A stretch of 64,000 nucleotides of DNA from Neophaeotheca triangularis (GCA_054600435.1 BAAIJX010000041.1:124001-188000), one strand, 5' to 3'; shown: positions 6,358 to 64,000, counted from the stretch's first letter. Program-made: numbers and translations. The notes: generated from the letters alone by a model not told the origin.

Positions 6358-6780
6358 ATTAGGATGGGGCTGTTGAGTTGTAGGGTAGATAGATTAATAC
6401 TACTTATTCCATGGCTTGTCTATAGGAGGTACTGTCATGTTTCCCGGCGAAGGTGTTATCTGCCAGACGCGTAGATAAAGTGTTCGCGTGTTGGAAGCTT
6501 CAGGGTCCAGTCCAGTTGCCCTCCGCAACGCCTTGGGCCAAACTTTCACCCACCTCGCTACACACTGCATCCTAGTAGTCACGCTCCATACTTACTTATT
6601 ACAGTACAGTTTCTGCAGATTGAATGCGAATCTACTCAGAACCTCGCCAAGCTCTTCATAATCCACCGCACCACTCGCGACCTCACCGAACTCAGCGACG
6701 AAACCTCAAGACCTCACCATCCATCAGCGCTTCCCTAGCAGCGCAGTTCTGCCGCCAGTCGGCAAGCTAGCAAGCAAACC

Positions 6781-15774: not shown

Positions 15775-16840
15775 ATGGATTTGGCGGCAATTCTTCGCGT
15801 GGCTAGCTTGTCCAACGGTGCCGGGTCTTCGAACGCGACCGAGTCTGCCAGCATGGCCGGGTCTTCCAGCGCGGCCGGGCCTTCTAACCTGGCTGGTTCA
15901 TCGAACATGGCCGCGTCTTCCAAGAGAGCTGGCTCATGCAAATGCAAAAAAGCTGCCTCGTCCAATAACTTGGTCGGCCCCCATCTGCTACCCTGCTCTA
16001 CCCTATACACACTAACAGCACATCACTTAGCCTAAACGCAAGAGAAAAGCGAACCATGAGCAGGAAAAAGACGGCGCAACTCGATCAGACCGAAGCAAAC
16101 GCGCACGCACCGAGCCCGAAGAGTCCGAAGAGTCCACCCCACCCTCAAGCCCAGAGAGCATTCGCCTCCCGCCATTCGCCGAGTCTGGTGCCGCAAGAGC
16201 CAGGGTATTGAACATCGCGGAGCTCCTCGAGCAGATACTTGTGCACCTGCCGATGCAGCAGCTTTTCAAGGCTCGTGGGGTCTGTCAGACCTTCCGAAGT
16301 TGCATCGACCATTCCCCTATCGTCCGGCAAGCTATGTGGCTGAGCCAAGGCCCTCCTTCGAAAATTGGGGAAGCACCTGTAGGTTTCGGGGCTGCGCTTA
16401 TGGACTTCGCGGACAATTACGATCCTTCTTTTGGAAACCTCAACCCTCTACTACTGGACCATTTCCGTCTCTGGCCCTTCGTCGAGAAGGCGCGGACGAC
16501 ACGCATGGGACCGGTGCTCCAATACGGAATCGATTTCGTGTGTCGAAAAGCCGAAGCCGGGAAGGGCATTCCACCGAAGCGACCGAAGCGGCCGTGGACC
16601 TCGGAAGCTCATGCCGCGTTCAAGAGGCTCTTTCTAGTGAACGTGCCGGTCAACAGCGTGCAGATCAGTATTGTGCTTGATTTTCCTCAGAGCCGCGATC
16701 TTCGCACTCTCGATCCCACTCGTCGTTGGAACATTCGAGGAGTTTGCCTTAAGATTCCGGCTGATGCGAAAGTTTGGGACCTTTTCATGATCATGGTTAA
16801 TTGGTACCAATGGGCGAGAGGACAGCCTGATTATATTTGA
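15775..16840 (+). CDS. F-box-like domain protein (intron 15973-16030)
   Basis: VLNIAELLEQILVHLPMQQLFKARGVCQTFRSCIDHS fits the fungal F-box pattern. Exon 1 (AGSS-rich) splices in phase 0 to PKRKRK; branch ACTAAC and TAG acceptor are present. Confidence 0.72.
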
Positions 16841-17807
16841 AACGAGGTCGTAAGGCAGAGCGTCGAGGGATAGCACATGCTGCGGAATAGGATACCTCAC
16901 TGCGCCTACAGAATTTCTCAGTCGTCTTCCACCCTCGTTTATGGGGTCGCGAGCCGCAGACAATGGAACGGCATTTCACACAACGGTGCGGCGATCGGCT
17001 GCTTGTATACCGGCCTGGCGTTGAAGGCGCGAAAGAGCACGAACAGGTTTTCTACCGTGGGAGACACTCGGGCGCTAGTGCGCAATGCCATGAAGGGGAA
17101 AACGCCTTCGTTCCAGCTTTCGGGGGGGCAGCATTGGGACTCTCGTTGGACAACGCTTCCCGTCCCTTGCGAAGAGGCGGAAAAGAATGTGCACTCATTC
17201 CATAGCTTTAGAAAACCTCACCTTGAGTTTTACTGCGTACATGCTCGTTCGAGAGCATATCGTGAAGCCGCATCGCTAACCGGGGGCTGCTCTGCTTCTA
17301 CTTTGTCCACCACAAGCGATCTGTATGGGCTAAACGCCGTGGGTCATGATGCCCACTGATCGCGTGGCTCGTTCTCCGATCGAACGCAAGCGGACCGTTG
17401 ACCGAGTATGAGATATGGGTATGATCGGAGTGCCCGGTATGTTCTTGTGAGGCTGGTGAAAACCTGCTAACCTTCGAGTGTTTGTAGTCGACGTGGTATG
17501 TCCCGGCTTGCCAAGACAAGCTTGCCGAATGCAACCTTGCTGCGACCTCGGAACAACTTCATCCATTGAACTGTACTGTGGGCCAGAAACAACACCTATC
17601 TAATAATACTCTACCCGTGCCGGCGACTTTGCATCCGCCAGTGGATGCAATTGTGGCTGCAGAGCCTTGTTACGCATAACGGACGATGATGCAGCGCCCT
17701 GACAGCGTAGCGTTGCATCCCGGAGCGCCCTGCGTTGGCATACCACTGCAACCCTGAGGTGATCATCACTGTGTCAGCCCGCGAGTCATTCGACTAGCAT
17801 TGCGACA

Positions 17808-43939: not shown

Positions 43940-44437
43940 GGCTGTGGCAGTGTTGGCGAGAGTATTTTGTTAGCTAGGTATGAGTGTAAGTTTGAGTGTT
44001 AGGAGCTTGTGGTCGCTGTTGGGCGAATACACAAAAGATGGTGGGTTATGTAGTAGATTGAACAGTGACGCAGCTGGACATTGACATTCACATGTCCAGA
44101 TCTTTCCAATCTCACTCACATCAGACGGACGACGAAAGAGACGCGACGGGGCTGCGGGTGGCAGGCTTGGCAGGTTATCAGGTAGTAGCTCGCTCGCTGA
44201 CACGACACACGGGAAAGCCAAGACTTCTGCCCGCCGGCTTGGTCTGTGCCAGCCAATGCGAGCTGCCTTTTTGTCGCTCTTTAAATCTTCCAAATTCCTT
44301 CTTCCTTGCGCAAACAACAACACCATTCATCAATCCCAACAACCTCACCTCCCTTCATAGGTTGTAATTGCCGTGAGGAGGTGTCACAGTAGATGGTGAG
44401 TACAGTCTGCTTCCTTCCCTCTCCCCCTGCAACTCGA

Positions 44438-44548
44438 ATGATGACAAGTTGTCGCCCCTATCATTACCTTCGGGCTTATGCCTTCATGGTGATTGACTTG
44501 TCTAGCCAAAGGACCGACTGATTTCCTGCCATTTTCTTCTTGATCTGA
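44438..44548 (+). ncRNA. Candidate box C/D snoRNA inside an intron (44396-44594) of an apparently non-coding host transcript
   Basis: Box C ATGATGA 44438-44444; CTGA at 44518 and 44545; enclosing GTGAGT donor, GCTAAT branch and TAG acceptor; no credible ORF around it. Confidence 0.55.
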
Positions 44549-45218
44549 TGAATATACCCACTGCGTGCTCTGGCTAATACTGTTACGCGCATAGATTTTC
44601 CCAAGCGCTCCCTTCGGATCGCAACGTCAAATTCTGGGCTCTCGCGAGTTGGTGTAACACAGTAGACACTCCTTCACATGGCCTACACATCGAACCCGCG
44701 CGTCGACCTCGCTAGCTACAATACGGGCAGTATTCAGTACGGGAGCGACCAAAAGAGGACGGGTCTAAAAATACTAGGTACGGTAGCCGCCTCCTCCAGC
44801 AACAACACCCCTTGCAATGATGAACAAAACAAATGTACTATCAAATACCGATCTACAATGACGATCAAATTGGTTCGATTACCTGAAAAACATTCTTCTC
44901 CACACTACACTGCGGCAATTACATTCCGGAGCATCACTGACGTTGCTCGATAGGTAGGTTTGCGCAAAACTAAATCCCAAGTCTATTCAAACTCTTCCAC
45001 GTAAGTATATTCTCCACGATCTTTCCCACCGCCACCAAAATGATGCCAAAAAACATTCCATGCTAAACCTGAAGACCCGCTGGGTCTCATGTTGATCAAA
45101 ATGTATAAGCTTTTCATCTTTCGACTGATTCCAAACCCATCCTTGTTCATTGAGCTTCCATGCACTTTCAAGGGCCTCCAACTGACGCTGTATCCCGTCT
45201 AGTTAATCCCGGTCATTC

Positions 45219-45977
45219 TCAATCTTGAAAAGCTGCCAACTCGTCGGCGTTCCACGATAGAAACTTTCCGCTCAAAACTTTGGGCGCATGCAATACCAAC
45301 TTCGCCATGACATGCCCTGGCTGCTCTGGTTTCAACAATCCTCCCGTCTGTTTCAATTCCGCGAACTTAGCAGCATCTTTCTCGTCCATAGCAGTACTGT
45401 GCTTTTCTCGTATATCCATTTGCATCTCCGTGTCAACGACACCAGGTCGCACGCTGACAGTCGTCACGTCCTTCTCTTCATTACCAAGTGACATGGCAAG
45501 ATGGTTCATAGCTGCCTTGGAAGCGCCATAGGCACCCCAACCAGCGTAGGCATTGCTCGCAGCTCCAGATGAAGTGAAGATGATGGCGCCCTTGGTCTTT
45601 CGCAGCGCCGGTAGAGCAGCTTCCGTCATAGCGACTGCAGAGAAAAAGTTGACATCGAACGCTTTGCGCCATGCTTCTGCAGACGATTCGGCAACGCGCT
45701 GTACAGGATCAAGCACGCCATGGTTGACTATCAAGCCATCGACGCGGTCAAACTTTTCCCGCGCAAGCTCTACTGCTTTCTTCCCTAAGGAAAAGTCCGC
45801 GAGATCTCCAGAGAGTACGCCAACTTGTCCCGGGTATTTGGTCTCGAGCTCTTTCAAAGGACCTTCGCTGCGTGCGAGTACGACTACTTTGTGGTTTGCT
45901 TTGAGGAGGTAATGGGCAATGGCCAGGCCGATGCCTCGAGAGGCGCCTGTGAGGATTATGACTTTTTGGCCAGCCAT
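45219..45977 (-). CDS. Short-chain dehydrogenase/reductase (Irc24/benzil-reductase-like)
   Basis: TGASRGIG cofactor motif, YGASK catalytic motif, RPGVVDTEMQ; ATG at 45977. Confidence 0.9.
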   Translation of the reverse strand: MAGQKVIILTGASRGIGLAIAHYLLKANHKVVVLARSEGPLKELETKYPGQVGVLSGDLADFSLGKKAVELAREKFDRVDGLIVNHGVLDPVQRVAESSAEAWRKAFDVNFFSAVAMTEAALPALRKTKGAIIFTSSGAASNAYAGWGAYGASKAAMNHLAMSLGNEEKDVTTVSVRPGVVDTEMQMDIREKHSTAMDEKDAAKFAELKQTGGLLKPEQPGHVMAKLVLHAPKVLSGKFLSWNADELAAFQD

Positions 45978-46350
45978 GTTTCGACAGATTCGCTGCTGAG
46001 AGGGTGGTGTGATGCGGTGTACAGTATCGTGGGAGCTCACGCGGGCGGGATGAAATTCCCAAGACTGCCCCTCCATCGGGCGCGATCCGTGTCTTGCGAC
46101 CCCGCAGCTTGCAGCATCACAAGGACGTGGCTTTGGCGTCAAATGGGGGTTTCTTGGATTCGTCTACGACCACCACTCGCTGCTTTACCGGCTGAGCTGT
46201 CCTAGAACATCACGAGTACCTGAGTACTGGGCAGTAGAAGCGATCAAGTTAAGTTCGTTCCATTGCCTTCCCCACTCTACAAATGGAGTGCTTCCCTTCC
46301 CGTCAAGCCCTCTATCTTCCTTCCTCAGAGTAAAAGAAAACCATTCCACC

Positions 46351-47844
46351 ATGGACGGCACCAACGAAGACCCCAACGACCTCGCCCGCAACACTTCTAT
46401 CTTCCAACCCGCCGTCGATGAGAACAGCACCGTCATCATCGGTGCCGGCATCATTGGTTGCGCAACCGCTTATTATCTCTCCCAAAACCCCGACGTTAGA
46501 CCCGATACCATCCACCTTGTAGAAGCCGCCCCTGAACTCTTTGCCTCAGCTTCAGGCAAGGCTGCAGGTTTTTGCGCACCTGATTGTACGCTCGCACCCA
46601 CCTAATTTTCTTGCTTTTGCGTTCCTCTTTCGCTCTTTGCTTTGCTCACGCGGCTCGCAGGGTTCGCACCGCCCACGGCCTCCCTAGGCGAGCTCTCGTT
46701 TCGTTTGCACCAGGAACTCGCGGCTGAGCATGGCGGCCGCGAGAAATGGGGTTACAGCAGGAGTACGGGGACGAGTTTCACCGAGGGCCGCGGGAGTGCT
46801 AGTTCTAGCAATGACTGGATGAAAGACGGTGCCAGTCGTGCGGAAATCGCGAGCAAGCATGAATTCGTTGGAGAGGAGGCTGGGCCGACTTGGTTGATGC
46901 GGAGGGAGGGGGATCGAATGGAAGTTCTCAGCGAGGAAGGGGGTGTAGCACAAGTGTGAGTCGGAACCACGCCACAAAACGGCCTCGAAGCCGACATATC
47001 TGACCCCCACTTCCACCCCAGCGACCCTCTCCGCCTCTCCCAGTTCCTCCTCCGCACTTCCCTCCGTCGAGGCGTCCGCTTCCACAACCCAGCAACCCCC
47101 ATCCGCCTCCAACGCGACTCGGAAAACAAGCTAAGCGGCCTCCGCCTCCGGCACACAGGCAGCGGCGCCGATTTCAAAATCCCTTGCACGCGCCTCGTAA
47201 TCGCAGCCGGAGCCTGGTCGACCCGCGTCTTCGAAACCCTCTTCCCAACCTCCGGTCTCGAGCTCGGCGTAAGCGGTTTCGCGGGCTACAGCATCGTCGT
47301 CCGCTCGCCGCGGTGGGAAGGGGAAGACACCACGCCCGCACCTCCATCATCCTCTTCACCAGAAACCGCCGCCGGCGACCGAGCCTGCCACGCAGTCTTC
47401 ACAACCAGCCCCTCCGGTTTCAGCCCTGAGCTCTTCTCCCGTCTCAACGGCGAAATCTACCTCGCGGGCTTAAACGACGCCTCGCTCCCCCTGCCCTCGC
47501 TCCCCACTACCTCCCCCCCGGATCCCGCGAAACTCCAGCAGTTGAAAACGACAGCTTCCCGCCTCCTCGGCCGCGACAACGAACCGGAACTAGACGTTTT
47601 GAAGGAGGGGCTGTGTTTCCGTCCCGTGACTGACAGCGGGCAGCCCGTCATTGCGAGGTTGGATGAAGAGGAATTGGGGGGTTTGGGCACGAGGGGTGGA
47701 AGGGAAGGGGGCGTTTTCGTCGCTGCGGGGCATGGGCCTTGGGGGATTAGTCTGGGGTTGGGAACGGGATTGGTCGTTGCGGAGATGGTTGAGGGAATGG
47801 AGATGGCGGGGTTGAGTGCTGATTTGGGGGGTTTGGGGGTTTGA
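46351..47844 (+). CDS. FAD-dependent oxidoreductase, DAO family (Tda3/Btn3-like), 2 introns
   Basis: VIIGAGIIG FAD motif, ASASGKAAGF, GLCFRPVT, AAGHGPWGISLGLGTG. Confidence 0.88.
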
Positions 47845-49127
47845 GAGATGCTTTCTCGAACAGCGAAGGGTTATAAATGGGATGGGGGGGGGGGAGGTGA
47901 CTCGTGGAGTTTCCGCACTTGCGATTTGAGCTTTTCGTATCAGTGCGAGGTACTCCCCAGCGTCTTCTCTACTCTTGGTCCTATAGCATGGTTCATGGGA
48001 TCTCGAACGGTGGAATAGCAGGTTCTGGATTCCAGGGATTAGGGATTCATGATCCTTTTAGTATGGTTCTAACATTGCACACCTACGACCATCATTCACG
48101 ACCAACCAGCTCCTAAACAGCGAGCGCAGACTGTGCTAAAACGGCTTCTGTGATCGAGGGATAATCGGTGCAAAAACGACTCGTTTTGCTGCCTCGATCC
48201 CGAGAGCCAATGTGTCGGTATCGCTGTCGTACCGCCGCGCATTCCCACGGCGACAACGAGACCGCCTCCACTGTGCGCGATGAAGACGAGGCCGTGGCTT
48301 CCGGTGCTCCGCTTCGTTTTATCCAGTCGGCACGTCTTGAGGTTGCAAGAACTGCACTCCTGATGCCGTATCGTCGGCTGTACACTAGTTTTGAGCAGCG
48401 GCCTTGTCGGGACGAGTCTCGGTGTCGTTGGTGGGTTTTGTTTTGGCAGTCACTCGCGGCTAGGAGGGAGGCGAGAATAGTTGCGCTCAGCTTGAAGTCA
48501 ACGGGTATTGTGTGCTGTCTGGTCAAGCGCAAGTGGAAGTAGGCGAAAGGGTGGTTGACGGAGACTTGAACACCAAGCGCCTACATCACCGGTCGAGGAT
48601 GACCAGTTCGTAATCGATGGTCATTGCCAAAGAACGGGATGCACCTGGACGTGAGAACGTATTCCTTAGGCTCGCCCATCACCGTAGATTCGATCGCATT
48701 CAGTTGATCTTTCTAAAGCAACGACATTTTGGCCGCTTGTGCTGGTATTCTAGCCCTACTGTCAGCTCATCAGGGCGTTCGAGGGGCTACCTTTTGCTGC
48801 CGTTGGGGAATGAATCGATGTGATTTCTACCTACTAACTCGGGCGATCCCCAAGCAAAGCCCGCGGCATAGGGCCTACGTCGAGACTCATCCTCGGGAAA
48901 GAATCGATGAGTTCATGGATTGAACTCTCAAGCAACCATGATAGCTAACGGCGACAGATTGCACGCTGTTTCCACCTCGACGGCTCAGCGAGAAGCAAGA
49001 GCTTATAACTCGGAATCTACCTGACAAGTCTCTCTGAGAACGATGCCTATAGCCTCGCCAAGCAAAATGCCAAGCACGCCCAAGCCTTCGTTAGACTGGC
49101 GGATAGTGAACGACTAAGGTACCTTAT

Positions 49128-49279
49128 TGTTGTAATGAGCCGTACTGCGCAGCACGTGACGGATGCCTAAGGCAGAAGCTGCAGAAGCCGCAACCTGTCT
49201 TTACAGGCTTTGCTATAAAGTACCTAGTTTAGTCCTTAGTAATCAATTAATCGAGTTCGTACCGCTATATATCATAATA
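49128..49279 (+). repeat. 5' LTR (about 152 bp) of the copia element
   Basis: Starts TGTTG, ends ..ATA (RIP of ..ACA), immediately followed by PBS GGTTATAAGCCC (49280-49291; RIP of GGTTATGAGCCC). Confidence 0.75.
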
Positions 49280-51819
49280 GGTTATAAGCCCGGCATATTA
49301 ATCCGTATAAGCGAGTACGAAACTAGCTAATTACGATTCCTAGGATAACTATCTCTAGTTAAACAAAATAGATACGAATAATAAGGGAGCTAAGGATAAT
49401 AAGATCCTTAAGAAGAACATAACCTTTAGTATCTAGGAGGCTATCCTAAAGAGTAAGCTACTTAATAAGGACTATCTTAACTATATGTTTTATAACCTTA
49501 AATAGCTACTAAGGGTAGTCTAATTACTAATATCTATAATAGATACTATAGTTAAGTTCTATAAGAAAGATATACTTATATATAGTATTATTATAGAAAG
49601 GCTATTAGACGAATATAGGCCTAACTATAGTATATTATATAAGATAGCTTATAAGCTATTTAAGTATATTAAATCTATCTACTAGCCTAATATTATAATT
49701 ACCCTCTATAAGGCTATCTCTAACCTCTATAGTATTAAGCTATAGGGAATAAACATCCTAAAGTATTACTAGGAGTTTATAGTAACTTATTAGACCTTTA
49801 AGAGAGCTATAGACTAGTAGGTTACTCTAAGGAACTAGACTAATATAGGAAGCATTAGTCTCCTAGATAACTACATTAAGATTCTCTTTAAAGGGGGAAC
49901 TCTAAATATAGAGTAGCTTAGGACTTAGAGATATAATAACCTCCCTTAGAGCGGGAAATACTTAGAGGATATAATTACTAGCCTTAGGTCTAAGGCCCTA
50001 CCTCCTCTATCTTAGTAATAGAGAAGGATATAGGGGTTTATAGATATAGCAAAAGACAATATCTATACCTAATATAATTACTACTAATATACTAATACTA
50101 AATGCTTTAAGTAGTACCTAGAGTAAGTACCTAAATAGTATAAGAAAGGTAAGGATAGTAAGAAGGATAGGTAGGAGGGGAAGAAGAAGGATATAGGGAA
50201 GAATAAGAATACTAAGTCTACTAAGAAGAAGGGGAGAAAAGCTACTATAGCTATTAATAATAGTAATAATAGTAATACTAAGTTAATCTTATCCCTATCT
50301 TTAAGAGGTATAGTAAGTATTACTCTATCTCTCTCTATAGTATTATAAGCTATAGTACTAGAAATCACTATTATTTTAGACTCTAGATTATCCTTCTCTT
50401 TCTTTAATAAGCTTAAGTATTTTTAAGATATTAAGCCCCTTAAGAAGCTAATTACCTTTAGCTAAGCTATTAGATAGGTCTCTATTACCTACTTAGGGAT
50501 AGTTAAGCTTTCCCTTAAGTACTATAATAAGATCTTTAGTATTACCCTAAAGAATATCTTATACTCCCTAGGATCCTCTACTAACCTAATTTATATAGAT
50601 ATACTATACTAGAAGTATAGGATTGCTCTAGATAGATATACTAATAAGCTAAGGTCTAATAAAAGCACTATTAGGATAGTAAAGCAAGTTTATAAGGTAG
50701 ATATTATATAGGATATTAAAATCCTTCTACTACCTTAGTAATAAAGCTTATTATTAATAGTAGTAGCTATACTAAGATTACTAGTAGTACTAGTAGTATT
50801 AGGGCTAAGGGTAGATATAACTAGATAGTACTAAAGACTAGGCTATATTAATAGTAATATTCTTAATACTACTAAATAACATATAACTAGGCTTAAAGTA
50901 GTAGATACTATAGCCCTAAGCTACTATAAGGTCTATAAACTCTTAAAGTCTTAAAGGGTTATCTTAAGAACCCTAAGAGTAAGGGCTAGTTAAGCCCTAG
51001 ATAAGATATATGTTAATATAGTTAGCCCTATTACACTAACCTCTAACATTAGTCTAAGGTACATTATCTTCCTAATAGATTCTAAAACTAGGTTTAGGTA
51101 GCCTCTCTTTATAAGAAACAAAAGTAAGGCACTATTACTTATTAGGAATTTTATAGTAAGAACTATAAATGCCTATAACAAGGTACTAAAGATATAGTTC
51201 TCTAATAATAGTAGGGAGTTTATTAACTATAATTTAATTACTATAGTATAGTAGATAGGGATAAGATAGGACATCTTAAGCCTAAAGACTCCTAAATAGA
51301 ATAGTATTATAGATTTATCTAATAAAACTTTCTTAGCTAAAGCTAGGGTAATAATAATTAACTCTAGTATTCCTAGAGATCTCTAGCCCTTAGCTATAAA
51401 CTATATAACCTATATTACTAATATAGTCTATAACCTTAGGACTAAGAAGATCCCCCTATAATACCTTAAAGAGGATTTAGGGGTTTCTAAGGACTAGACT
51501 ATTAACCTCTCTAACCTTAGAAAATTTAGCTATAAAGTATTCCTATATAACTAAAATAGGATTACCTTAAAAAAGTTTACCCTAAGAGCTACTATCTACT
51601 AGTTTATAGGATTCTAAGATAACTCTACTACTAACTACCTCTTAATAATACTAACTAGATAGGGCCTATTTAGTATTATTTAGAGCCTATATATAACCTT
51701 TAATAAGGATACTTACTTTAAGCCTATTTAGGCTCCTATAGTTTAAGGAGAATAGTTAGCCCTTTATATCCTAAGGCTTTAGGAGAACTTTAATAGCCTA
51801 TAATAAGAGTAGTAATAAT

Positions 51820-52105
51820 AATAAGCCTCTCCTAAGGGAGAGTACTAATATTAATAAGCCTCTCTTAAGGGAGAGTACTAATACTAGTAAGTCTCCCCTA
51901 AAGAGTAGGGAGAGTACTAGTAAGTCTCCTCTAAAGAGTAGGGAGAGTATTAACCTTCTCCTAAGGGAGATTATTAATAAGCCTCTCCTAAGGGAGAGTA
52001 GTAATACTAAGCCTCTCCTATAGAATAGGGAGCGTAATAATAAGAAGCCTCTCTTATAGAATAGGGAGAGTACTAAGAAGTCTCCTCTATAGATTAGGGA
52101 GAGTA
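51820..52105 (+). repeat. Degenerate tandem repeat (core AAGCCTCTCCTAAGGGAGAGTACT) in the integrase-RT linker
   Basis: About 9 imperfect units of roughly 24-36 bp. Confidence 0.75.
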
Positions 52106-53711
52106 ATAGTAGCCCTTAGTTAACCTAATAGAGGAAGATTAAGAAGATACCTTAATAACATTATTCTTCCCTTAGCTAACTACTAGTAAGAGGAAGAGAT
52201 TACTATCCCCCTAGCCCTCAATATATAAGGGTAGGTAGACCTATAAAACCGTAGAATTATAAGTAGTTATATATAGGAGCTATAACCTAAGCTACTAATA
52301 ATCCTAAGGACTATTACGATATATTTAGTAGAAAGGATATAAGCTAGTAGAAGGCTATAATAATTAAGGAGATTAAAAGCCTTAAATCTACTAGTATAAT
52401 TACTTAGATTAAGTAATTAGAGCTACTACCTAGTAGAAGAGCACTTATAAGGAAGTAGGTATTTAAGCTAAAGCTTCTCTTAAATAGCTCTATTAATAAG
52501 TATAAGGCTAGATAGATAGTAAGGGGATTTTTATAAAAGTAAGGTACTAACTATATTAATACCTTTATACTAATACTAAGACTAGGAATAGGAAGAATCT
52601 TCCTAGCTATTATATTCTAGCTTAAATAGAGTAGAACCTAGATTAATATAGAGATAGTATTCTTAAATCCTAATCTAGATAGATAGATCTTTATCTAGAT
52701 ACTAGGAGGACTTAAACTTATTCTTAAGGATAAGAAAGGAAAGCTTATAAAGATTAATAAGGGCTTATATAGTCTTAAGTAGGTAGCTTACCTCTAGTTC
52801 TAAGATACTATATCTTATCTTAAGTTAATAGGACTAAAGTAGATAAAGTCTAATATATATCTTTTTACTAGTAATAATATACTAGTTTTAATATATATAG
52901 ATAACTTCTAGATCTTTAGCCCTAAACCTAAGAAGATTAAGTAGCTTATTATAGGGATAAAGAAGAAGTATAGTATTAAGGAGGTAGATACTAACCTTTT
53001 CTTAGGCCTATATATTAAGGAGAGTAGGAATACTATTAAGCTATCTTAGAAGTATTATACCCTTAATAAACTTAAAGGGTATAATCTAGACTAAATAAGG
53101 ATAATTAAGTACCTACTTAACCGCTTATATAAACCTTCTAAGAAGTAATATATTTAGTAGGTTTATTATATCTTTAATAAGATAATTAGGGAACTATAAT
53201 TCCTAGTAAACTAGATAAGGCTAGACATTTCTTATATAGTTAACTACTTAGTAAAGTTCCTTTAAAACCTATCTAAGGAGTATATTATAGCTATAACATA
53301 TATCTAGAGATATATTATAAGCACTATAGATAGAGGACTTATCTATAGGAGATAGGAAAGGATTTCTATTAAGGCCTATGTCTGCGAAACTATGGCGTCG
53401 TATATAGCGCTTAAAGCGACTATAAGCGCTATCTACGCGAATGCGCGTCTATAGCCATAAGCTACTACAATCACTAGTCGGGCGTTAAAGCGAGAAAGCG
53501 TCCTACAAGCGACAGCACATAATATAAGCGACAACATAGCGATAACATATAATATAAGCGACAACATCTACTTAAAGTGATAGGTAGAGCTATAAGCAAT
53601 CATAATACCTTCAAGTATGTAGTTATAGACATTCTATAACGCCTATACCACATGACCGTCATTCGACTACATAGCATCGGCTTTAACACATAGTCGTATA
53701 GTAGTAGGTAT

Positions 53712-53814
53712 CGAGTTAACTTCCTACTCGTGACCCGACTCGTAGTCCGACTCGTAACCCGACTTAACACCTAACTTAACGCCTGATTTAACACTCGATT
53801 CACGACTCGACTAA
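53712..53814 (+). repeat. 12-bp-period YGASTCR heptamer array 1 (9 units)
   Basis: Units at 53712, 53724, 53736, 53748, 53760, 53772, 53784, 53796, 53808 (e.g. CGACTCG, CGACTTA, TAACTTA). Confidence 0.85.
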
Positions 53815-53899
53815 CGTTCTCACTTATAGCTTAACTAGAAGTAGCTACATGCCTCTAGTCGAACTAGGTTTATAAGACGAGTTAGCTTAACGAAACTAA

Positions 53900-55968
53900 G
53901 TCGTATTATGAGTCATAATCATGTCGTACTTCATAACCTTAGACGATTTCGTAGTAATAAGCAAAAAAGCGTGTTAGGGACCTAGGATAGGCACGAGTAA
54001 TCGAAGAGTAGGGTAGTAATATAGCAGACTAATAATCGTCTAGCCTTCTAATAGATCCTCTTACTATACTATTACCCCTAACGGCCCGCCCTTCGTAGTA
54101 TGTACTGTACGGATTTTCTCCTAAGTATCGTCGTCAAATGCCTTACATTACCCTAGGTCCTTCCCCTTACTTTCTACGAACTAGTAATGCTATACCTAGG
54201 GAGACACCGCTAGCCTAATCCTAGCTACCATGTCACGTTCTACCTATAGCTAATCATAGGACTGCTTAAGACAATCCTTCTTCGATATCCGATACTGCTT
54301 TGTTACTACCGGAGTAGTAGCCCCTTAGGACAGTTCGGGATCTAGCATAATGTCTCGTTCCTCGTCTATATCACTAAGCCTAGAGCTTACGCGACTATCC
54401 GAGTCGCTATCTAATAGACACCGTTAGTATGCGTTTAAGTAGCGATCGACACATCTCTAATGTACCTCGCACATCCCTATTATTCGAAGCGTTATCGCTA
54501 ACTAGTATGATCTACTATTAGTATCTACTATAATGCGCGATATAGCTTGAAACGTACCTTGTCTATCTCCGTAATCGTAGCGACGATGTCTGTCTACAAA
54601 TAGGTCTCTTGTACTCGCGCTCGCCGACGCTATAGGCTCGATAGGCTTACTAGCCTAAGAACTGTAGCTAAAGCTCTAACTGTCTCCCCCTAGTAGTAGG
54701 GCCTCGATCGGATCGCTTATAACCGACATGTTAGTTAACCTTAGTAATAGCTACCCGCTAACATATGCCCCTACGGCATTATTCGCTCGAGAAACCCCTT
54801 CTAAGTCGACTTCCGAGTCGTCCTCTAATTCGAGGCTCTCTATTATATACGTATATAGGTAGAGATCGGTTCCTATAAGTAGGCCGCCATTAGTAGGGTC
54901 CTTTATGGTGAACACGCGCTATATAAGTATGTCTAATATCTTCTTCTTCCTTATCTCGTCTTACTCGTTCCACTATTGCCATTTTTGTTCGAAAGTAGCT
55001 ATAGCTCTATAGGTATTAATCTTCGAATACGTCGCTATCCCGTTAATAGCGTTCACGTAGTTAGTCCCTTTAGATATGCTCTCGATTACTATGTATAGCG
55101 TCGTGTAGGTACTTATTAACAGGTATGTAGTTACCTATTCGAACATACCCCTCGTATATAAGTACGAGCCTACTATGCCTTTGTTATAGAAACTCTCGTT
55201 AAGTGCGGTGATTATAAAGGGGGACAAATATCTTTTACGCTGTTACTAACGTTAGACATAGACAGGTATAGTTTTGGTAACACTTACCCTATCGCTGTCC
55301 TTATACTCGAACTTGTTGTTCTCTAGTAATGATAGCGCCTATTCCCGCTATACTACTATGTCTAACCCCTATGTACTTATCGCCGCGGTGATCTGTTTCT
55401 TAACCACTATGGTCACATTGTTCTTAAAAGAGCGTACACCTTCCCGGATCTGACCTTAACATTAGTCGTGTCTTTAGTAGTACTATATTCGTAAGGCGCT
55501 TACTAAATCGAATGCTTCGTCGTGTACTGTCTCCCTAACGCGCTTTCGCTTATTTGCTAGCAACGCATTACGGCATTTATCCTACTATAGGCTCGGAGCG
55601 CGCTCTATCTATTTATATGCCTCGATAACTAGGTTAAACACTATAAGGCTATCTAGCCCTAGGGCCGAGCTAGCCTATACTACTTACTTTAACAGCTTGT
55701 ATACCTTAATGTGGTTATCGTTAGGCTTCTACGCTCTACTCGTTTTCGTTACTCCTCTACTAGGAACTGACCGCGATAGTGTTATATATAACTATGAGCT
55801 ACGCGAGTCGCGTCGATCTAGACGGTGTAGTTATTGTCTGTCCTTAGGCTCGCTAGAACTCCCGCGCTGCCTCGGCGCGTCCTTCGGGGTAGCCTTTCGT
55901 AGGTATACCTAGCTAATATGCGGTTAGATATATACTATAATAGAGTTAGGCGACTTACGCGGTAGCAT
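53900..55968 (-). pseudogene. RIP-mutated intron-containing gene of unknown function (ORF-A); 3' boundary approximate
   Basis: ATG at 55968; frames broken mainly by TAA/TAG; GTAAGT...CTAAC...CAG intron near 55240-55287; reads LLENNKFEYKDSDR/RKRYLSPFIITALNESFY. Confidence 0.45.
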
Positions 55969-56391
55969 CTTTTGCCTAGTTCCCGTTACTCGGTTTCCTA
56001 TAGTATAGCGTAGTTATATGTCTTATTAGGGATAGATAGGGCATAGTTACTTATATTAATTAAGGCTTTTAATTTAGCGCTTAGTAACGAGTAGTGTAGT
56101 ACGACTAGAGGGGGATGTGTAAACGCTATCTTCAAGTTCCTCGAGAATATACGCATATAAGGGAAAAAGAAGATAAAGGGTATAGGGGAAAGGTATTACT
56201 CCGGGCTTCGTCGCGACGTGTTACTTATTGTCGGGATTTCGCGTTATGTCCTAGGTGCTACGGGGATTTGTCGTCTTAATTAGTTAAGACCTAAACCTTA
56301 AAGAATGACCTCTATAACTCTCCCCTAACCACCTTATATGTAGTGGTGTGCTTAGGCTCCTTTAAGCCCCTATTAATACCTATATACGGAT

Positions 56392-56489
56392 TAAGCTATA
56401 GATTAAGTTAGAGTTTAAGTCGTAGATTAAGTCGTAGATTGAGTCGTAGATTAAGTCGCAGCTTGCGAATTAAGTCGTAAACCGAGCTG
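56392..56489 (+). repeat. 12-bp-period heptamer array 2
   Basis: Units at 56392, 56404, 56416, 56428, 56440, 56452 (TAAGTCG/TGAGTCG), plus two offset units at 56471 and 56483. Confidence 0.85.
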
Positions 56490-56500
56490 TAAAACATATC

Positions 56501-57290
56501 ATGTTCGGTCTCTTAGAACGAAACCTCTACTATACGAGCCCCTCTACTAGGAAAGATACCTATTCCTATGCCGTTAGGATAGGTAGGCCTACCTACTACG
56601 CTAGTAGCTAGTAAACGTATAGGCTCTAACCTCTTAGGCCTTTATCTATTATTCGACCGCTAGACTAGCGCCTCGCTAGCTCCTCCTAATAGTAATAGGG
56701 CTATTAGCCTCGCTCGTAAGCGTCGCCTATCGTCTATATCCCTACTACCTAGTCCGACCCCCGTTAGGCCCCCTCGTAAAGGGCTATGTGCCTATCGCTA
56801 GAGCTAGGCACACCGCTACTAAGCGTAACCCCCCTAGCGTCTATTCTCGACCATAACTCTAAGTCCGCCTTTAAGTAGGCCTCGTTTAAGTGACACCCTT
56901 CGTCCTAACGACCTCGAAGACGCCCTAGTGGGTATAGTAATACTACTACCCGATAGTAGTTAAATGAGCAAATCTTAGTCTAAAGAGCTAGGGGTACTAA
57001 ACAGGAGAGACTTTAAACACGCATCCTCTTTTAACATAGACAAGGCGGTTAGAGCTAGCGACTATCTACACACTAAACTAGAGACAAGGATAGATGCCCG
57101 TCTACTTCGCTATAATCTAGACCTAGAGGTAGTGACCAAGAAAACACGTTGTCCTATTAATACGGTAGCTACTATTAGGTAGTTATATACATGTCACCTC
57201 TACTAAAGAACGATGAAGTGTATAGGCTGCCTATAGCCTAGTAGATAGGATATGATAGCTTTCTACTAGCGTTCGTTGTCAATTGTCGAG
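56501..57290 (+). pseudogene. Possible RIP-mutated gene relic (ORF-B), unknown product
   Basis: ATG right after heptamer array 2; coding-like stretches such as RPNDLEDALVG and FNIDKAVRASDYLHTKLETR with RIP-type stops. Confidence 0.3.
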
Positions 57291-57329
57291 GGTTATATAC
57301 CGCTTTTTGTATTAAGTTCTAGCTAACTT

Positions 57330-58102
57330 AATCTATCGGTAGTTACATTAAAACTATGTTCTGTCTCTAATATATTTAAGAATCGCTTAAAGTCTAGATC
57401 GTTAATGCTAAAGTGCGGCATTTGTCTTATAGACTAGCTCCTCGACAGCTCGTAAGGACAGCACACTAGTTTATACACCCCCCCCCTTAATGTTATAGCT
57501 ATTATACCCTACCTTAGACGCTCGCTATCACTTAGGTTACGGTAAGGTCTATAGGGATACTCTATCGTTACTACCTCTTTAGTCTTTCCCGCTTCTTTAC
57601 ATAGCACATTTGACTTAGTTGTCGACTCGGTTTTCGACTCGTGTATTGACTTAGGTACTAACTTAAGTCCCGATTTAGGTGTTATACGCTACCCGCCGTA
57701 CTGTCCTAGTGACTACCCTCTCTTCGCGGGCTTCTAGCGCTATCGAAAATTCGCATATATATAGTAAACTAGTGTCTTAAAGGCCCTTGATCCTATTAGT
57801 GTCCCTATACCTATAAGTACACTAGGATATTTGTTCGTGATACTAGGACTCTAAGATATTGCGGCGACTAGCTCGCTTTACATAGTGTCCTTCTCGGTTA
57901 TAGAGCGAAAGGTGTTACTAATCTATCCTACCTATGTCATTATCTACTCCACTATAGCATATAGCTTAGTATACGCGTCTTCGTCGATGTTAAGGTTACT
58001 CGTGATCATCTTAATAGACGTGTTCCTGCCTATTCTTAACGAACTCGTCCTCCTCTTCGCTAACGGCCTATTCGCCTAGTGCTTGCTACTAAGCCATAGC
58101 AT
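57330..58102 (-). pseudogene. RIP-mutated gene relic (ORF-C), unknown product
   Basis: One frame from ATG 58102 with only TAG/TAA stops for about 220 codons (NLNIDEDAYTKLYAIVE...); includes heptamer array 3 in frame. Confidence 0.4.
57611..57677 (+). repeat. 12-bp-period heptamer array 3 (inside ORF-C)
   Basis: Units at 57611, 57623, 57635, 57647, 57659, 57671. Confidence 0.85.
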
Positions 58103-58728
58103 GTTTTCGTGTCCTATTAATTATTCGACGCATTTTGTTATCGAGCCGGAAGTACGTAGAGGGGGCATAAAGGCTTACGCGTTTAACGTTCATAGTTGTT
58201 TACAAGTTATATGTTACTAGTAGGTATAGTATCTAGGTATGTAGGTGCTAAACGCTTATTTAGCCGGCTTCTAAATATAGGGGCACCTTACCTAGCTCTA
58301 CGGTCTTTATCTCCTACTACCTTAGACAATACCTAGTGTACTATTAGATGCGTAAACCCTACTGGTATACTTTACTCTACTGTAATCACTTTGTCTAGTC
58401 TATATAGAGTACTGATTACAGTATAAAGGGAACTTGATATAAAAGCTAGCCGTAAACGGTAGGGAGGAGAACATTATACATAAAGAGCTTTCACACTCCT
58501 AATTACTCGTGATAGCTGCATACAGACTCGTGAAAGAGACTAGTATTATCAAAAGGCTTTAGGGTCTGTCCCTTTAACGTACTACGGTAAAGAGTTAAGT
58601 ATTATTCCCTCGACCCGACTACGTCCCTTTTCACTCGAGTATTTACTACCCTATATGTATTGCTTATTAGCTATTACCTACGCTACGGCAACCTTCGAGG
58701 GAGAAAGCACTAAAGTTCTAGTAAAACA

Positions 58729-58795
58729 TCACTTAACATTCGACTCGACATTCGACTCGACATTCGACTCGACACCTAACTCGACTACTAACCTA
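58729..58795 (+). repeat. 12-bp-period heptamer array 4 (upstream of the SNF2 relic)
   Basis: CGACTCGACATT x2, CGACTCGACACC, TAACTCG...; units at 58729, 58741, 58753, 58765, 58777, 58789. Confidence 0.88.
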
Positions 58796-58899
58796 ACATT
58801 AGTCTACATTCTTTAACCGCACATCTATACCGTAATTGTCGACTACTCGCATTAGCGACCTATACCTACTCTTATCTATTACTACCCGACCCTATATTA

Positions 58900-61800
58900 G
58901 TCCCTATAGCTCGGCGGCTACATGTACCTTCGCTAGCGGAAAGCTTCTAGTCCCGCGACGACGCGATTTAGTGGCTTAAGGTACACGGCGACTCTAACGG
59001 ACCTAGTCTAAAGCATTTATTTAGCCTTTCGCTAACTAAGTTTACTACCTTATGCGATAAGGCCGTAGATACTCTTAAGAATGCGTTCTCCCCTTACTCT
59101 ATTACTAGTCGGCTTCCTTATCTTTACTAAAAGAATTACTATAAGCATATCGCGGCTAAGATTGCGCTTTTCAACTAGGATTAGTACTAGTAGCTTCGCC
59201 TAGTATAGGAGAAGAACAATTAACCTACCCCTACCTAGTTTAATGAAACCATGATGTGTAGGGGCTAGCTACAAACCGGTAGGGAGAACGATAAAGACTA
59301 TAACTTCTCTACTATCGGATAGGTACTCCTCTACTATACCGCCGCGAAGTATAAGAAGACTATTAAGGAAGAAGAGAGAGAAGACCGTTTAATTAGGATG
59401 TCATTATAGAGCTGTCGCTTAACTTCGAATAGCTCTCGTCGATTATCCGGTTCTTCTACGCATAAAGTTACGTTAACTCTTAGTACTACGTCGTTACTCG
59501 CACCTCTATATCTCATAACATCCCCCGGTGCCTACCCTACGACTCTCGATATTCCTTCGATTAGACCTAAGCCTAAGCTTTCTATAGTGTCGGTCTTTGT
59601 TACTCGAGTGTCCCTATATCCTCTCTCTAATAGCATCCGCCTTTAAACAGTAATTTTCGGTTATGCCTAGTACCTTAGTCCCGCTATGTCGTAGGGATTT
59701 ACGATAGACAGTTTCAAGGACTTTTGTAGTAGAAACTTTAAGGGTAAAGAGTTATATTAGCTTAAACTACCGGCATGTAAGCTATAGGTCCTCTAGGATA
59801 GGATAAGCATTAAGGCTACTATATAGGCCCTTTATAATTGCATTAACATAAGGCGGAATAGAGAAGGGCTAGATCTGTTCCTTATAGAGTATCCTAATTT
59901 GTTCGAACGACTACCTAGCTAGTATTAGGAACCTTCCCTCGCGATAGCCGAACAAGAGATAATCATACCTTAATCGGATTTGCTTAACTCTAAAATGTTA
60001 GACGCCCTAGATTATTCTAGAGTTATAGGCGACAATGAAGATGTCGGACAAGAACCTCCTCGTATACTACCGAGTATAAGACGCAAATCGCCTCCTAAGC
60101 CGCGTCGTAATAGTCCCGAGTTACCTAGCAAGTCGAAACGCGAGTGACCTACCGAGTCAATTCCTAAGTCAAGTCCTAAATCAAGTCCTAAGTTAAGTCC
60201 TAAGTTAACTCCTAGTAAGGCCCCTTTATCTAAGTATATACTAAAGGATGCTATAGCACTATCTTCGTAAGCCCCTACCGCTATACCCGCTTCTACTCCT
60301 ACGGTTATCGTAAACACCTTTCCGTTCATGATCGTCCATGATCTAACTACCGTGGCGCTCTAGCGAGGCGTTACTACTAATAAGCCTATAATTAACATTC
60401 TTACTTTTAGTAGAGGATCTACTATAGTGAAGAAGAGGGACAATAACGGCAATAAAATAGAGGAGCTCGTTCGCTATAGTAAGACGTATAACTAGGATTT
60501 GGTTAACTAGATAATGTTAAAGGCTAACGTAGGTAGTACCCCTATACCGGTTTCTAGCGATAGACCTCCTTCTATAGGCGATAATAAGGAGATTGATGCG
60601 ACTTTAGGAGACGAGAAAAACGCGGTCGAGAAGATACTAGGTTTAATAGCCTAAGACCCTATATTGTAGAACATAGTATATAAGTTCTTCGGTTTCGATC
60701 CTTAAGAGGCCGACTCGAGGAGTATAGTCTAGTACCCTAGGTAGAATAGGCAGAAGGCATTAAAGGCTTACTAATTCTACACTATTGCCTTTATCCTTAA
60801 GAGGCTCGCCCTAGGACATGACGTCGCCATCATTGCGTTAGGAATAGGTCTTAGAAAGACACCGATCGGCCTAGTAGTCCTAGACCTACTACGCTATATA
60901 CAATGTGTACCTAGGGCGAATAATCCCCCTAATTCGGGTATCATCCGCCCTTCTACTCTCTTAGCTAGATCGGTAACCGAGTCGGTTTTATCGCCTAGTA
61001 CCTCTTACCGTAAGAAGCTATAACAACTCGCTAGTATAGATTATGAACTAGACGTCCGCACTAGTGCTATGCTTATTATCTTCTATAAGGACCTTATCCT
61101 CGAGTGGGTTATAGGAAGACGTCTCTTCCTTACCGAGGATAAACCCTAGTTAATTATCGTATAGGGCCTACCTTTTATAGCTACGGAGAAGAAACCCGGC
61201 AGTCGCTTCTATAGCTATGTGCATTATAAAGGCGACATACGCATAACCTAAGCGTCTATTTAGCGAGAGCTAGTAAAGGTCTATAGCGTAGTAGACATTT
61301 AATAATGGTAAGATAACGACAGGCATGTTCTAGTAAAAATACTTCTCTAGCGCCTAGACATAACTAGAGGTCAGATATGTCTATAGTAATAACACTTCTT
61401 TATCATTACTATAAAGGAGTCGATTAACAAATGTATCTCTAGCTTCGATCACTCTACTAGACAAGATGTACTAGGTCATCTTAACGCGGAATAGGCATAT
61501 ATGATAATCGACGAGTTTCACGAGGTTAAGAAACATAAGTCTACACCCTAGCCTACTGTCGGTCGTCTCTATAGAAACCTAGCCATTATTGCTATAAGCT
61601 TAACGCCGTATTCGAAGACTAGGCATATCGGACCCCTAACTATAGTACTATATATAAGGTACTTCGATGTTACTAAGACTATCCTAGGGAAGAAGGGTAT
61701 ACTAAGTCGGACTATAAAGGCTAGGTTCTCTAACCTAAAGCACTATGAATTTACCTCTAAAAACCCAAATCTTAAGTTTAAGCCTACCGTTAGTAGGGTA

Positions 61801-62898
61801 AGGCAGAAGATAATTAAAGAAGACTATTACCTTGACATAGACAGCCTTTACGGGTTAGTTAATAGTTATATAGAGAAGCCTCTTAAAGAAGGTAGAGTAG
61901 GAAACGACAGTGAAATGCTACCGGATATTACCGATTACATTAAGGATTTTAGTAGATTCATTAACCTATAGTCTATCTAGTTTGATTCTAACTTCGAATA
62001 GAAGCAAGTAGCTAATAAGCCTAGTATGCCTATCGTCGATATGCCGGCCTATATAGCCTTCGACATTTAGTATTCTTTTAACAAGAATACTATCTCCGAG
62101 ATAGCGTTATACTAGAAGACAGCTATAGCTAAAGTAGGCGAGTTCTTACCGTCGGTACACGAGTTCCGGACCCTTATAGCCTTTCCGATACTCCTTAACC
62201 TATATAACGAGGACTCCGACCTTTCTAAAGAGCTCGGGTCCTTTACTATTAAAGCTATGAAAACGATATTTCGATAGCGAGAGGAGATGTATCTTTAGGC
62301 CTATATAGATAAGCTGTATAATACTAAAACGATGCTGTTAATCCGTTCGATTATATAAGCATTCCGTAAGTTACCTAATACATTAGGAAAGAAACGTAAA
62401 GTCGTCTTCGCGGCTCACAAACTATTTAACCTTGTAATCCTCTAGCTATATCTCGTCTACCTTAGTAGACTAGATAGTTATGATGCGCTTCAAGACGAGG
62501 ATAATATCGCCATAGTCGCATCGTGGGCATAGAGTCCGACCGCTAACTAAGAGAGGATAAAGGCGTTTACGACTATAATAAATAAGTCCGAGGGTTACGA
62601 AGACAAACCCTTTATCATAGTAGCATCTGTTACTTAGATCAAGTCTAGTATATCTCTTCTACCTACTAATGTCGTGGTGTAGCTCGATAGTAACTAGGAT
62701 CTAGTAACGGATTACTAGCTTACTAGCTATATATAGCGTAACGTATCGGTATAGGCAGCGAAGCATACGGAGAGCTTTAGGCTAGTGCCGTTCACTAAGG
62801 ATGTTAAGCTCGTATACTAGTAGTCTTTGTCCTATACGAGTCTCTAGACTATAAAAAGTCAGATTGACGAGGTAGAGGCTATAATAGGCATAGTTTAA
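58900..62898 (+). pseudogene. RIP-inactivated intronless SNF2-family (SF2) helicase/ATPase, about 1300 codons
   Basis: One frame contains Q-motif LKA(HQ) ~60760, Walker A G(M)GL(G)KT 60841, Ia MLII..DLILEW ~61070, II MIIDEFHEVK 61501, III IAISLTP ~61590, IV RKVVFA ~62395 and V/VI S(G)ISLLP(A)NVVV(Q)LD(G)N(W)D(P)..D.(Q) 62644-62740. Confidence 0.85.
60117..60207 (+). repeat. 12-bp-period heptamer array 5 (inside the SNF2 ORF; encodes ESxP repeats once de-RIPed)
   Basis: Units at 60117, 60129, 60141, 60153, 60165, 60177, 60189, 60201. Confidence 0.85.
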
Positions 62899-63041
62899 CA
62901 CGACGTTACTATAGGGACGGGATAGATGCGACTAGGGCATATAGCCTATACGTACATTTTAGGTATTTAGTAGTAGCATATATAAGGCGAACATTTTAGT
63001 TAGAGACACGTTGATTTGCTAGCCGTCTTATAAGTCGTGTT

Positions 63042-63172
63042 CGAGTCGACACCCGAGTTAACACCTAAGTTAATACCTAAGTCGAGACCCGAGTCGAGAC
63101 CTAAGTCATATTCATATTTCATCTTGAACCTATTACCTAACCGAGTCGACAACCGATTCGGAAATCGTTTCG
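63042..63172 (+). repeat. 12-bp-period heptamer array 6 (downstream of the SNF2 relic)
   Basis: Units at 63042, 63054, 63066, 63078, 63090, 63102, plus a short run at 63142, 63154, 63166. Confidence 0.85.
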
Positions 63173-63499
63173 AATACCTAGTGATAATAGAGTAAAGTAA
63201 ATACGTAGTATCCTTATACTAAAGGGTTAGTACCTATAGTGCTAGTGTAGTATGTAGAACAATCGTTTGATAATTAGAAATATGACCATGTACTAATAGT
63301 AGTTTAAATGCACGAGGGCTACAAACCTATAACGTACGCTGTTTTGCCGTTTTCGCCCTTATTTCTATGATATAGTATGTCGTAATAAAGACTATAGTCA
63401 ATCTTTACCTATTAGACTACTCTTACTACATACTACTCGATCAATACGACCTTGCTGTTAATTGATCCGTTTTACCTAAATCTTAAACTCTAACCCTAG

Positions 63500-64000
63500 C
63501 CGCGACTCGCTACCAAATCGCGAACTAAGCCGATTAGATTAAGCGTCTTTTTCGAGTTAAGACGAAAGTAATAACACCTCTCCTATAAGTTACACAAACT
63601 ATAAGTAATGTCTCGCTCCTAATATAGATAGATTAGTCTCGAGCCGAAGAAAATTAGACCCTTATCGTTAATACCCGGATAACGTCCTATCGACACCCCT
63701 ACACGCCCTTATACTCGCTAACCTTCGTTAGATAAGAGAAGGAGATAAGCAAGTACTAGACAGGAACAACGCCGTCTTTAACTAAATTCAAGAAGCGTAA
63801 AGATAGGGAGACTTCGCGGCTAGGGTAAGGCCTAGTAGTAGTCGAAGGGGTAGTAGTACTAGTAGTAGCGACTACTACCTTAAGGCGTTTAAGCTTAGTA
63901 GACTTAGCCTCTAACCCCTTTACGAGATTATCGCGTTCCTTAGCGGTAGCGCGGTAGGGGTCGGGCCTAGTAGTAGTTAAAGGGGTAATAGTGCTAGTAG
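63500..64000 (-). pseudogene. 3' part of another RIP-mutated ORF entering from beyond the window (ORF-E)
   Basis: The minus frame reads ..PDPYRATAKERDNLVKGLEAKSTKLKRLK..REVSLSLRFLNLVKDGVVPV, about 80 codons without a stop. Confidence 0.35.

Follow-up and report, generated by a model that had tools for sequence, protein, structure and literature searches.

The analysed stretch of Neophaeotheca triangularis DNA (GCA_054600435.1 BAAIJX010000041.1:124001-188000; 64,000 nucleotides, hereafter the window) carries, at 53379-63706, a block of dead genes that includes an SNF2-type helicase. We interpret this block as the remains, killed by repeat-induced point mutation (RIP) and now present as a single copy, of a discrete gene unit in which gene A and gene B lie on the minus strand and a long gene of ~1300 codons lies on the plus strand, its N-terminal part being followed in frame by a divergent SNF2-type ATPase. 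By sequence comparison, the same genes appear intact, with the same order, strands and spacing, on L001, a metagenomic contig from another fungus-like genome. We give roughly even credence to the view that 53379-63706 is the fossil of an unclassified, low-copy helicase-bearing element, whose mobility we infer from the RIP, the conserved block and the rarity of the gene families. The block and its gene relics are as follows:

53379-63706: helicase block, single-copy in this genome and evenly mutated by RIP along its 10.3 kb.
54063-55209, minus strand: gene A relic, whose two pieces share a frame of 382 codons, 19 of them TAA/TAG stops.
57206-58033, minus strand: gene B relic, with 15 TAA/TAG stops in 276 codons.
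58951-59389, plus strand: relic of the helicase N-terminal part (profile match, E 1.8e-5), sharing its frame with the SNF2 core.
60682-62883, plus strand: relic of the SNF2-like helicase core, with 38 TAA/TAG stops in 734 codons, a Walker A motif reading GIGLRKT and the DEFH box kept.

RIP acts only on duplicated DNA. The indices of the block (TpA/ApT 1.82, (CpA+TpG)/(ApC+GpT) 0.41, CpG observed/expected 1.31) were compared with those of the flank at 1-49127 (0.72, 1.18 and 0.95, respectively). All 11 of the 1-kb bins of the block carried the signal (TpA/ApT 1.65-2.22; (CpA+TpG)/(ApC+GpT) 0.30-0.47), which was strong over the full 10.3 kb and did not weaken with distance from the edges, a pattern that leakage from adjacent repeats does not account for. 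The plus-strand frame at 58951-62883 contained 67 stops in 1311 codons, 66 of them TAA or TAG, and required no frameshift; the stops in genes A and B were solely TAA or TAG. These results indicate formerly intact genes killed by C-to-T and G-to-A changes. Every gene in the block is dead, and the copy in the window has no present function. Since RIP needs duplicated DNA and the signal shows no edge decay, we conclude that a single nucleus would once have contained two or more copies of the whole block.

The present copy number was assessed in run X1, the probable source sample, whose contigs were compared with 44001-64000 at an identity of at least 80%; word depth in these data is not a formal copy number. 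The gene-rich flank (44001-49155) formed one contig at a word depth of 125 (125.3). The block also lay in one unbroken contig of 10,575 nt at a depth of 136.9, and over 54006-63343 the summed depth of everything at or above the identity threshold equalled that contig alone, except for +3.6 in one bin. The neighbouring copia stretch was shattered into short contigs whose word depths summed to 690-1384, where the flank had 125. An unbroken contig at flank depth beside a shattered repeat indicates that the X1 data hold no second copy at this identity. A first-pass annotation of this DNA, made from the sequence alone, had proposed a multicopy element here; repetition in the past is upheld, as the uniform RIP attests, and multicopy status today is not. 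Runs X2 and X3, which bear the same organism label, covered almost none of 44001-64000, the gene-rich flank included, and therefore cannot tell presence from absence of the block between strains.

The window is gene-rich, at ~0.54 GC, until 49.1 kb and AT-rich from there to its end. The AT-rich part opens with a retrotransposon relic that meets the block at an abrupt junction:

49128-53378, plus strand: RIP-mutated Ty1/copia relic of a multi-copy family, with a long terminal repeat starting TGTTG... at 49128 and a cut inside RNase H at 53378.
53378-53379: point at which the copia relic gives way to the helicase block, marked by X1 contigs and by a shift in CpG observed/expected.

Read on the plus strand with stops as X, 49129-53378 matched Pfam RVT_2 at E 1.9e-19 over about 52432-53089. 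The left neighbour thus has an RVT_2-type reverse transcriptase (RT) followed by RNase H and is a Ty1/copia element. Its reading frame terminates as ...ISIKAY at 53378. The X1 contig of another copia copy matched the window up to this position and then read CTTAGACTTAGATTTTATAGGT, which translates as L/S-D-L/S-D-F, the RNase H motif expected there (S-D-S-D-F); after 53378 the window itself reads TGTCTGCG. The 10,575-nt contig mentioned above (contig 8 of X1; 53284-63858, 0 differences) spans the junction and reaches 95 nt into the copia relic. The continuing sister copy and the bridging contig together demonstrate that the breakpoint 53378|53379 is real and exact, in agreement with the first-pass annotation, which had placed the change to unrelated DNA at this point of the copia pol.

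The X1 contigs of the copia stretch differed from the window mostly by T>C and A>G, changes of the RIP type, which together with their shattering and high depth indicates a multi-copy, RIP-diverged family. The loose ends of five X1 contigs before 49128 mark the 5' end of the relic. Its composition (GC 0.30, TpA/ApT 1.86, (CpA+TpG)/(ApC+GpT) 0.13, CpG observed/expected 0.21) resembles that of the block in TpA/ApT and differs from it in RIP history or intensity, CpG being nearly gone in the copia relic and kept in the block. The rise in CpG observed/expected from 0.21 to 1.31 across 53378|53379 shows that two separate mutational histories meet at 53379. Within the relic, 51806-52112 holds an internal array of 33-36-nt units in about seven to eight copies, encoding the peptide repeat ..KPLLRESTN...

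The helicase relic was searched with phmmer as the X-read frame 59800-63099 against 1.84 billion representative proteins, which yielded 29 matches at E<=1e-3, the best being P0001 (E 1.7e-65, 32% identity). When these matches were searched back by tblastn, they fell on 60682-62883, with no second copy in the window. Pfam SNF2-rel_dom scored only E 0.12-0.22 on the relic alone. Of 11 homologues scanned, 7 lay above the SNF2-rel_dom cut-off and 2 more just under it, some with ResIII or Helicase_C as well. Their alignment (A1) showed conservation of G200, G202, K203, T204, D397, E398 and H400. With an N-lobe, a C-lobe and the Walker A and DExH motifs, the predicted protein belongs by sequence to the SNF2 helicase family, and the earlier assignment to SNF2 and not to RecQ or Pif1 was borne out. 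The nearest language-model clusters were also SNF2 helicases, a basidiomycete cluster first and several from giant viruses and phages, which we take as a lead only. Searches of PDB sequences gave 0 matches with P0001 (phmmer) and 0 each with the open reading frame (ORF) of the helicase N-terminal part and with a gene A exon.

Of the 29 matches, 27 were looked up and 4 were named: two hypothetical proteins of Polychaeton citri, one of Meristemomyces frigidus, and one generic 'superfamily II DNA or RNA helicase'. The P. citri and M. frigidus (Dothideomycetes) homologues sit on contigs of 1.3-3.4 kb. A word-indexed protein search with P0001 and with alignment A1 returned only P0001 and P0031, the word index limiting its sensitivity. 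Two further homologues, P0015 and P0021, share one 41,004-nt contig, and P0025 is found on a contig of 50.5 kb. In a quick tree with approximate likelihood-ratio test (aLRT) support, the helicase paralogues of each contig (L001 and the 41,004-nt contig) were sisters within their lineage, a pairing that would reflect either repeated duplication or concerted evolution. The window relic formed a long branch grouping with P0005, P0013 and P0010 (aLRT 90).

Gene A was recovered by tblastn with its L001 protein at E 1.4e-4. Gene B matched the L001 gene at 6379-7365 (minus strand) by tblastn at E 2.6e-33, with 31% identity over 283 amino acids, and its alignment had 35 invariant columns in five sequences. 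The word-indexed search returned 3 gene B relatives, one a hypothetical protein of M. frigidus. A structure predicted for gene B from a 5-row alignment reached a predicted local distance difference test score (pLDDT) of 49, and Foldseek with this low-scoring model found nothing at E<=0.001 (best E 0.41). An atlas search peaked at a score of 0.83 and gave only Ascomycota clusters without names. Judged from these searches, the helicase and gene B families appear rare and patchy (29 clusters among 1.84 billion, and 3 relatives, respectively). Several Pfam hits were discarded. DUF6532 (PF20149), at E 0.006 over 102 pieces, scored 16.9 bits where its cut-off is 24 and was attributed to chance, and the intact L001 counterpart gave no match at E<0.1; matches to F-box, GST_N_3, PT and DUF7535 were judged to be noise.

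The intact counterpart was found by scanning metagenome contigs with P0031. L001 measures 17,240 nt at GC 0.53, and its RIP indices are normal, so it is not RIP-mutated. Five pieces of the window were collinear with L001 and on the same strands (tblastx, tblastn, and phmmer or hmmsearch on the six X-read frames). The matches are given below, with phmmer and hmmsearch E-values that refer to a target set of those six frames only:

L001 gene A exon 2391-2954, minus strand: window 54063-54291, minus strand, phmmer E 3.5e-3.
L001 gene A exon 3325-3876, minus strand: window 54792-55209, minus strand, phmmer E 4.1e-7.
L001 gene B 6379-7365, minus strand: window 57206-58033, minus strand, phmmer E 1.9e-34.
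Profile of L001 N-terminal ORFs 8487-9590 and 14544-15650: window 58951-59389, plus strand, hmmsearch E 1.8e-5.
L001 SNF2 gene 9687-12509, plus strand: window 60682-62787, plus strand, phmmer E 4.7e-66.

Amino-acid identity between the two blocks was 26-48%. The spacing from gene A to gene B was 2.8 kb in the window and 3.1 kb on L001, and that from gene B to the SNF2 core was 2.7 kb and 3.1 kb, respectively. On L001 the unit of N-terminal ORF and SNF2 gene occurs twice in tandem (8487-12512 and 14544-17240), with N-terminal parts 36% identical. PADLOC and NCBIfam on the L001 proteins gave only generic SF2 helicase and IS5-like signals. The first-pass annotation had described several gene relics in both orientations and a switch from the broken copia element to unrelated multi-gene DNA, and both points were upheld: genes A and B lie on the minus strand and the two helicase parts on the plus strand, the junction is bridged by a contig, and the gene set recurs on L001.

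L001 also carries, 0.8 kb away from gene A, an intact PIF/Harbinger transposase gene (238-1581), recognised by its DDE_Tnp_4 match at Pfam E 3.2e-25. After this gene, 1665-1790 holds two 39-nt direct repeats, 97% alike, each with a GC-rich palindrome. The Harbinger gene may well form a small element of its own, as suggested by weak inverted matches between 125-136 and 1687-1698.

The two ends of the block in the window were characterised by the following features:

53401-53567, plus strand: short direct repeats just within the left end, comprising a 10-nt unit, two copies of a 30-nt unit and five of AAGCGA.
63707-64000: another multi-copy repeat, which begins here outside the unique block and shows 135-nt tandem units from 63815 onward.

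AAGCGA occurs on the plus strand at 53414, 53488, 53507, 53526 and 53556 (5 in 148 nt, 53414-53561); AAGCGR has 77 sites on both strands of the 64 kb, about one per 830 nt. This cluster may represent subterminal repeats, which would fit a transposon end and prove nothing. The heptamer at the block start, TGTCTGC (53379-53385), is also found on L001 at 1952-1958, ~440 nt past the end of gene A, where it forms part of a TGTGTG...CACACA hairpin; the match may be a coincidence, the odds being about 1 in 20 over that stretch. At the right end, 63707 coincides with the loose ends of two X1 contigs, go-back joints and a last-bin depth of 511, several-fold deeper. The block is therefore flanked by two multi-copy repeats, the copia relic and the repeat from 63707, and the unique part seen is 53379-63706, which leaves the 'at least 10.6 kb' annotated at first unproven. 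Comparison of 63600-64000 with the copia stretch 49000-53400 gave no blastn match, and Pfam gave no match on 63707-64000, of which the minus strand reads as a T/S/P-rich peptide and a charged coiled-coil-like stretch.

Six tandem arrays with a 12-nt period were seen along the block (53726-53794, 56389-56465, 57618-57651, 58736-58792, 60155-60214 and 63049-63107). They share a GACTCG/CGAGTC-like core on both strands, some being intergenic and some lying in low-complexity linkers of the relic genes. A 15-nt degenerate pattern for these arrays gave 2 matches against 0.9 expected and was not informative. At comparable positions between its genes (7866-8078 and 13921-14303), L001 carries arrays of 23 nt and 100 nt that are unrelated to these.

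Several observations weigh against a mobile element. The block is single copy here at an identity of at least 80%, with no second copy sharing its boundary; a single-copy segment with no shared boundary at 53379 is the outcome that the first-pass annotation had itself named as counting against its proposal. No terminal inverted repeat was found between the sequence from 53379 onward and the DNA before 63706, and no target-site duplication. The right end at 63706 is simply the point where another repeat starts. The continuation of the copia element past the break was found nowhere in the window; with that remainder outside, insertion is not proven, and the annotated nesting in copia stands for the left junction and not for the other side. 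The L001 block (2391-12512) contained no transposase, RT or recombinase domain by Pfam. The synteny rests on a single independent contig, L002 being the same locus as L001 at 99.5% identity, and three adjacent host genes could likewise stay together in related fungi. Two further points concern X3X3R8, the published repeat family compared below: no UBC/Rad6 domain was found in the window or L001 by Pfam, and no Parastagonospora nodorum protein was among the 27 of 29 phmmer matches looked up, the likeness to X3X3R8 being by description only.

Domain searches of the window belong with these points. All six frames of 53379-64000 were scanned with Pfam in stop-as-X readings, whole and as 102 overlapping 400-residue pieces, and no RT, DDE, Rep/Pif1, tyrosine recombinase, KDZ or Plavaka domain was found, in line with what the first-pass annotation could recognise. 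KDZ, Helitron (Rep and Pif1), Academ (RecQ and XPG) and Mutator-like element (MULE) DDE gave no match at E<=1 in any frame, at the low sensitivity that Pfam has on RIP-mutated DNA. Because the genuine SNF2 relic itself scores just E 0.12-0.22, these negatives are a weak test.

The alternative that survives best, which we nevertheless consider unlikely, is that these are ordinary host genes: a lineage-restricted three-gene neighbourhood would have undergone segmental duplication and RIP, one copy would have been left in the transposon-rich AT block, and the copia junction would have arisen through a deletion or a repair event and not through insertion of an element. The single-copy state, the lack of a transposase, terminal inverted repeat or target-site duplication, and a supposed nesting visible from one side only all agree with this account, and Hane and Oliver call the analogous X3X3R8 an 'endogenous gene cluster' (PMC3017866). 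However, public proteins include very few members of these families, and the named ones lie on tiny contigs typical of unassembled repeats. Order, strand and spacing have been kept at just 26-48% amino-acid identity, and the L001 block likewise directly adjoins a transposon gene.

A further reading, which we hold as doubtful, goes beyond a low-copy fossil. The A-B-SNF2 block with its paired helicases would then be the core conserved across a so far undescribed class of fungal mobile elements, large and low in copy number; such an element would be related to X3X3R8 and move without a known transposase, gene A or gene B supplying a new recombinase or nuclease.

Starships are large, low-copy elements with unrelated cargo genes and no long terminal inverted repeats, and they carry a DUF3435 tyrosine-recombinase captain near one end. 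We consider it improbable that the block is the captain-distal end or the cargo of a Starship with its captain beyond the window. These general traits fit and the far end is unseen; moreover, as Starships are low-copy, the single copy of the block is no objection. No DUF3435 was found, however, in the six frames of 53379-64000 or in the ORFs of the 17 kb of L001, the DNA beyond the window being unseen, and the literature yielded no report combining Starship cargo with an SNF2 helicase. Its conservation at the identity given above and its own pairs of helicases give the block the look of a core, not of accidental cargo.

In PIF/Harbinger elements, terminal inverted repeats enclose DDE_Tnp_4 and the target-site duplication is 3 bp (or TA), and Plavaka and CMCT elements end in TGT..ACA or CATCA..TGATG with a 2-3 bp target-site duplication. 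There is a slim chance that the block is what remains, after truncation, of a giant cut-and-paste DNA transposon of the PIF/Harbinger type seen on L001 or of a Plavaka-like type, its transposase having been lost at the copia junction or lying beyond 64000. The DDE_Tnp_4 gene 0.8 kb from the gene A end on L001 and the short direct repeats just inside the left end speak for it, and the block starts with TGT, as do the PlavakaA ends reported as TGT..ACA in PMC12730594. By sequence, this start is too short to count as a Plavaka sign: three common letters are expected 1 in 64 times by chance, and the window has no definable ACA end or target-site duplication. No relic of the L001 transposase was detected in the window at E<=1, no terminal inverted repeat was present, and the inverted matches on L001 suggest that the Harbinger gene is separate. 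Plavaka (PF18759) and KDZ domains gave no match in the window or L001. With neither captain nor transposase in the window or the L001 block, the Starship, Plavaka and KDZ memberships floated at first were not sustained, and membership of PIF/Harbinger likewise found no support. Readings beyond those set out here are very improbable.

We return to the fossil of a low-copy helicase-bearing element. The duplication that exposed the block to RIP would most likely have come from a large low-copy element carrying these genes, of the same kind as X3X3R8. The sister copy may later have been lost, for example by segregation, or may have diverged beyond 80% identity. The block could have been inserted into the copia element or joined to it by deletion. 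In the live element, the SNF2 ATPase might have acted as a DNA translocase or chromatin remodeller, aiding access or escape from silencing. If the block was mobile, it would point to a further mechanism, in addition to Starships, for the movement of 10-30 kb of fungal DNA.

Compared with known systems, the helicase resembles canonical SNF2 ATPases (Pfam PF00176 and PF00271) in its Walker A motif (GxGKT), DExH motif and C-terminal helicase lobe, and its homologues pass the Pfam cut-off. It differs from them in that its branch is very divergent, at 21-48 bits only, and its family has a private N-terminal part of about 370 residues. The block is like Starships in being low-copy, large and cargo-carrying, in lying in repeat-rich DNA and in needing no long terminal inverted repeats, and unlike them in that a captain was not found in the window or L001. 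Kojima (2025, PMC12730594) describes fungal DNA transposons of many superfamilies that capture DNA-modifying, chromatin or epigenetic genes, the TET/JBP-bearing elements including Harbinger (PHISTA), Plavaka, KDZ and others. Those transposons likewise pair an extra gene acting on DNA or chromatin with further unknown proteins, and a DDE_Tnp_4 gene adjoins the block on L001; the window differs from them in having an SNF2 ATPase and not a dioxygenase, with no transposase relic, terminal inverted repeat or target-site duplication.

The closest published analogue, likened by layout and description, appears to be X3X3R8 of Parastagonospora (Stagonospora) nodorum SN15 (Hane and Oliver 2010, PMC3017866), the sole literature report we found that unites an SNF2 helicase, RIP and a repeat family. 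That report describes a 26-kb unit built from two tandem X3 and one R8 in reverse orientation, in which three helicase genes named as Rad5/SNF2-like accompany one gene that is Rad6-like and two that are uncharacterised; it gives nine gene-annotated copies of a RIP-affected family and interprets X3X3R8 as an 'endogenous gene cluster' (PMC3017866). Against those 26 kb, nine copies and a Rad6-like ubiquitin-conjugating enzyme, the window has one copy and one helicase, and the many copies of X3X3R8 have no parallel in the one X1 contig at single-copy depth, with no other at an identity of at least 80%. Tandem helicase units occur in both X3X3R8 and L001, and one helicase gene is in view in the window.

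Helicase-bearing multi-gene repeats without a recognisable transposase have been unexplained in Dothideomycetes since the X3X3R8 report of 2010. The window adds a second, sequence-distinct gene set of this kind, likened by description, and evidence that such a set would be inherited as a block across distant genomes; L001 offers an intact template whose proteins are open to study. On the published description, the two systems share the form of a large, RIP-affected, multi-gene Dothideomycete repeat without a recognised transposase, in which SNF2-type helicase genes are accompanied by uncharacterised ORFs on the opposite strand, here genes A and B in the window and on L001.

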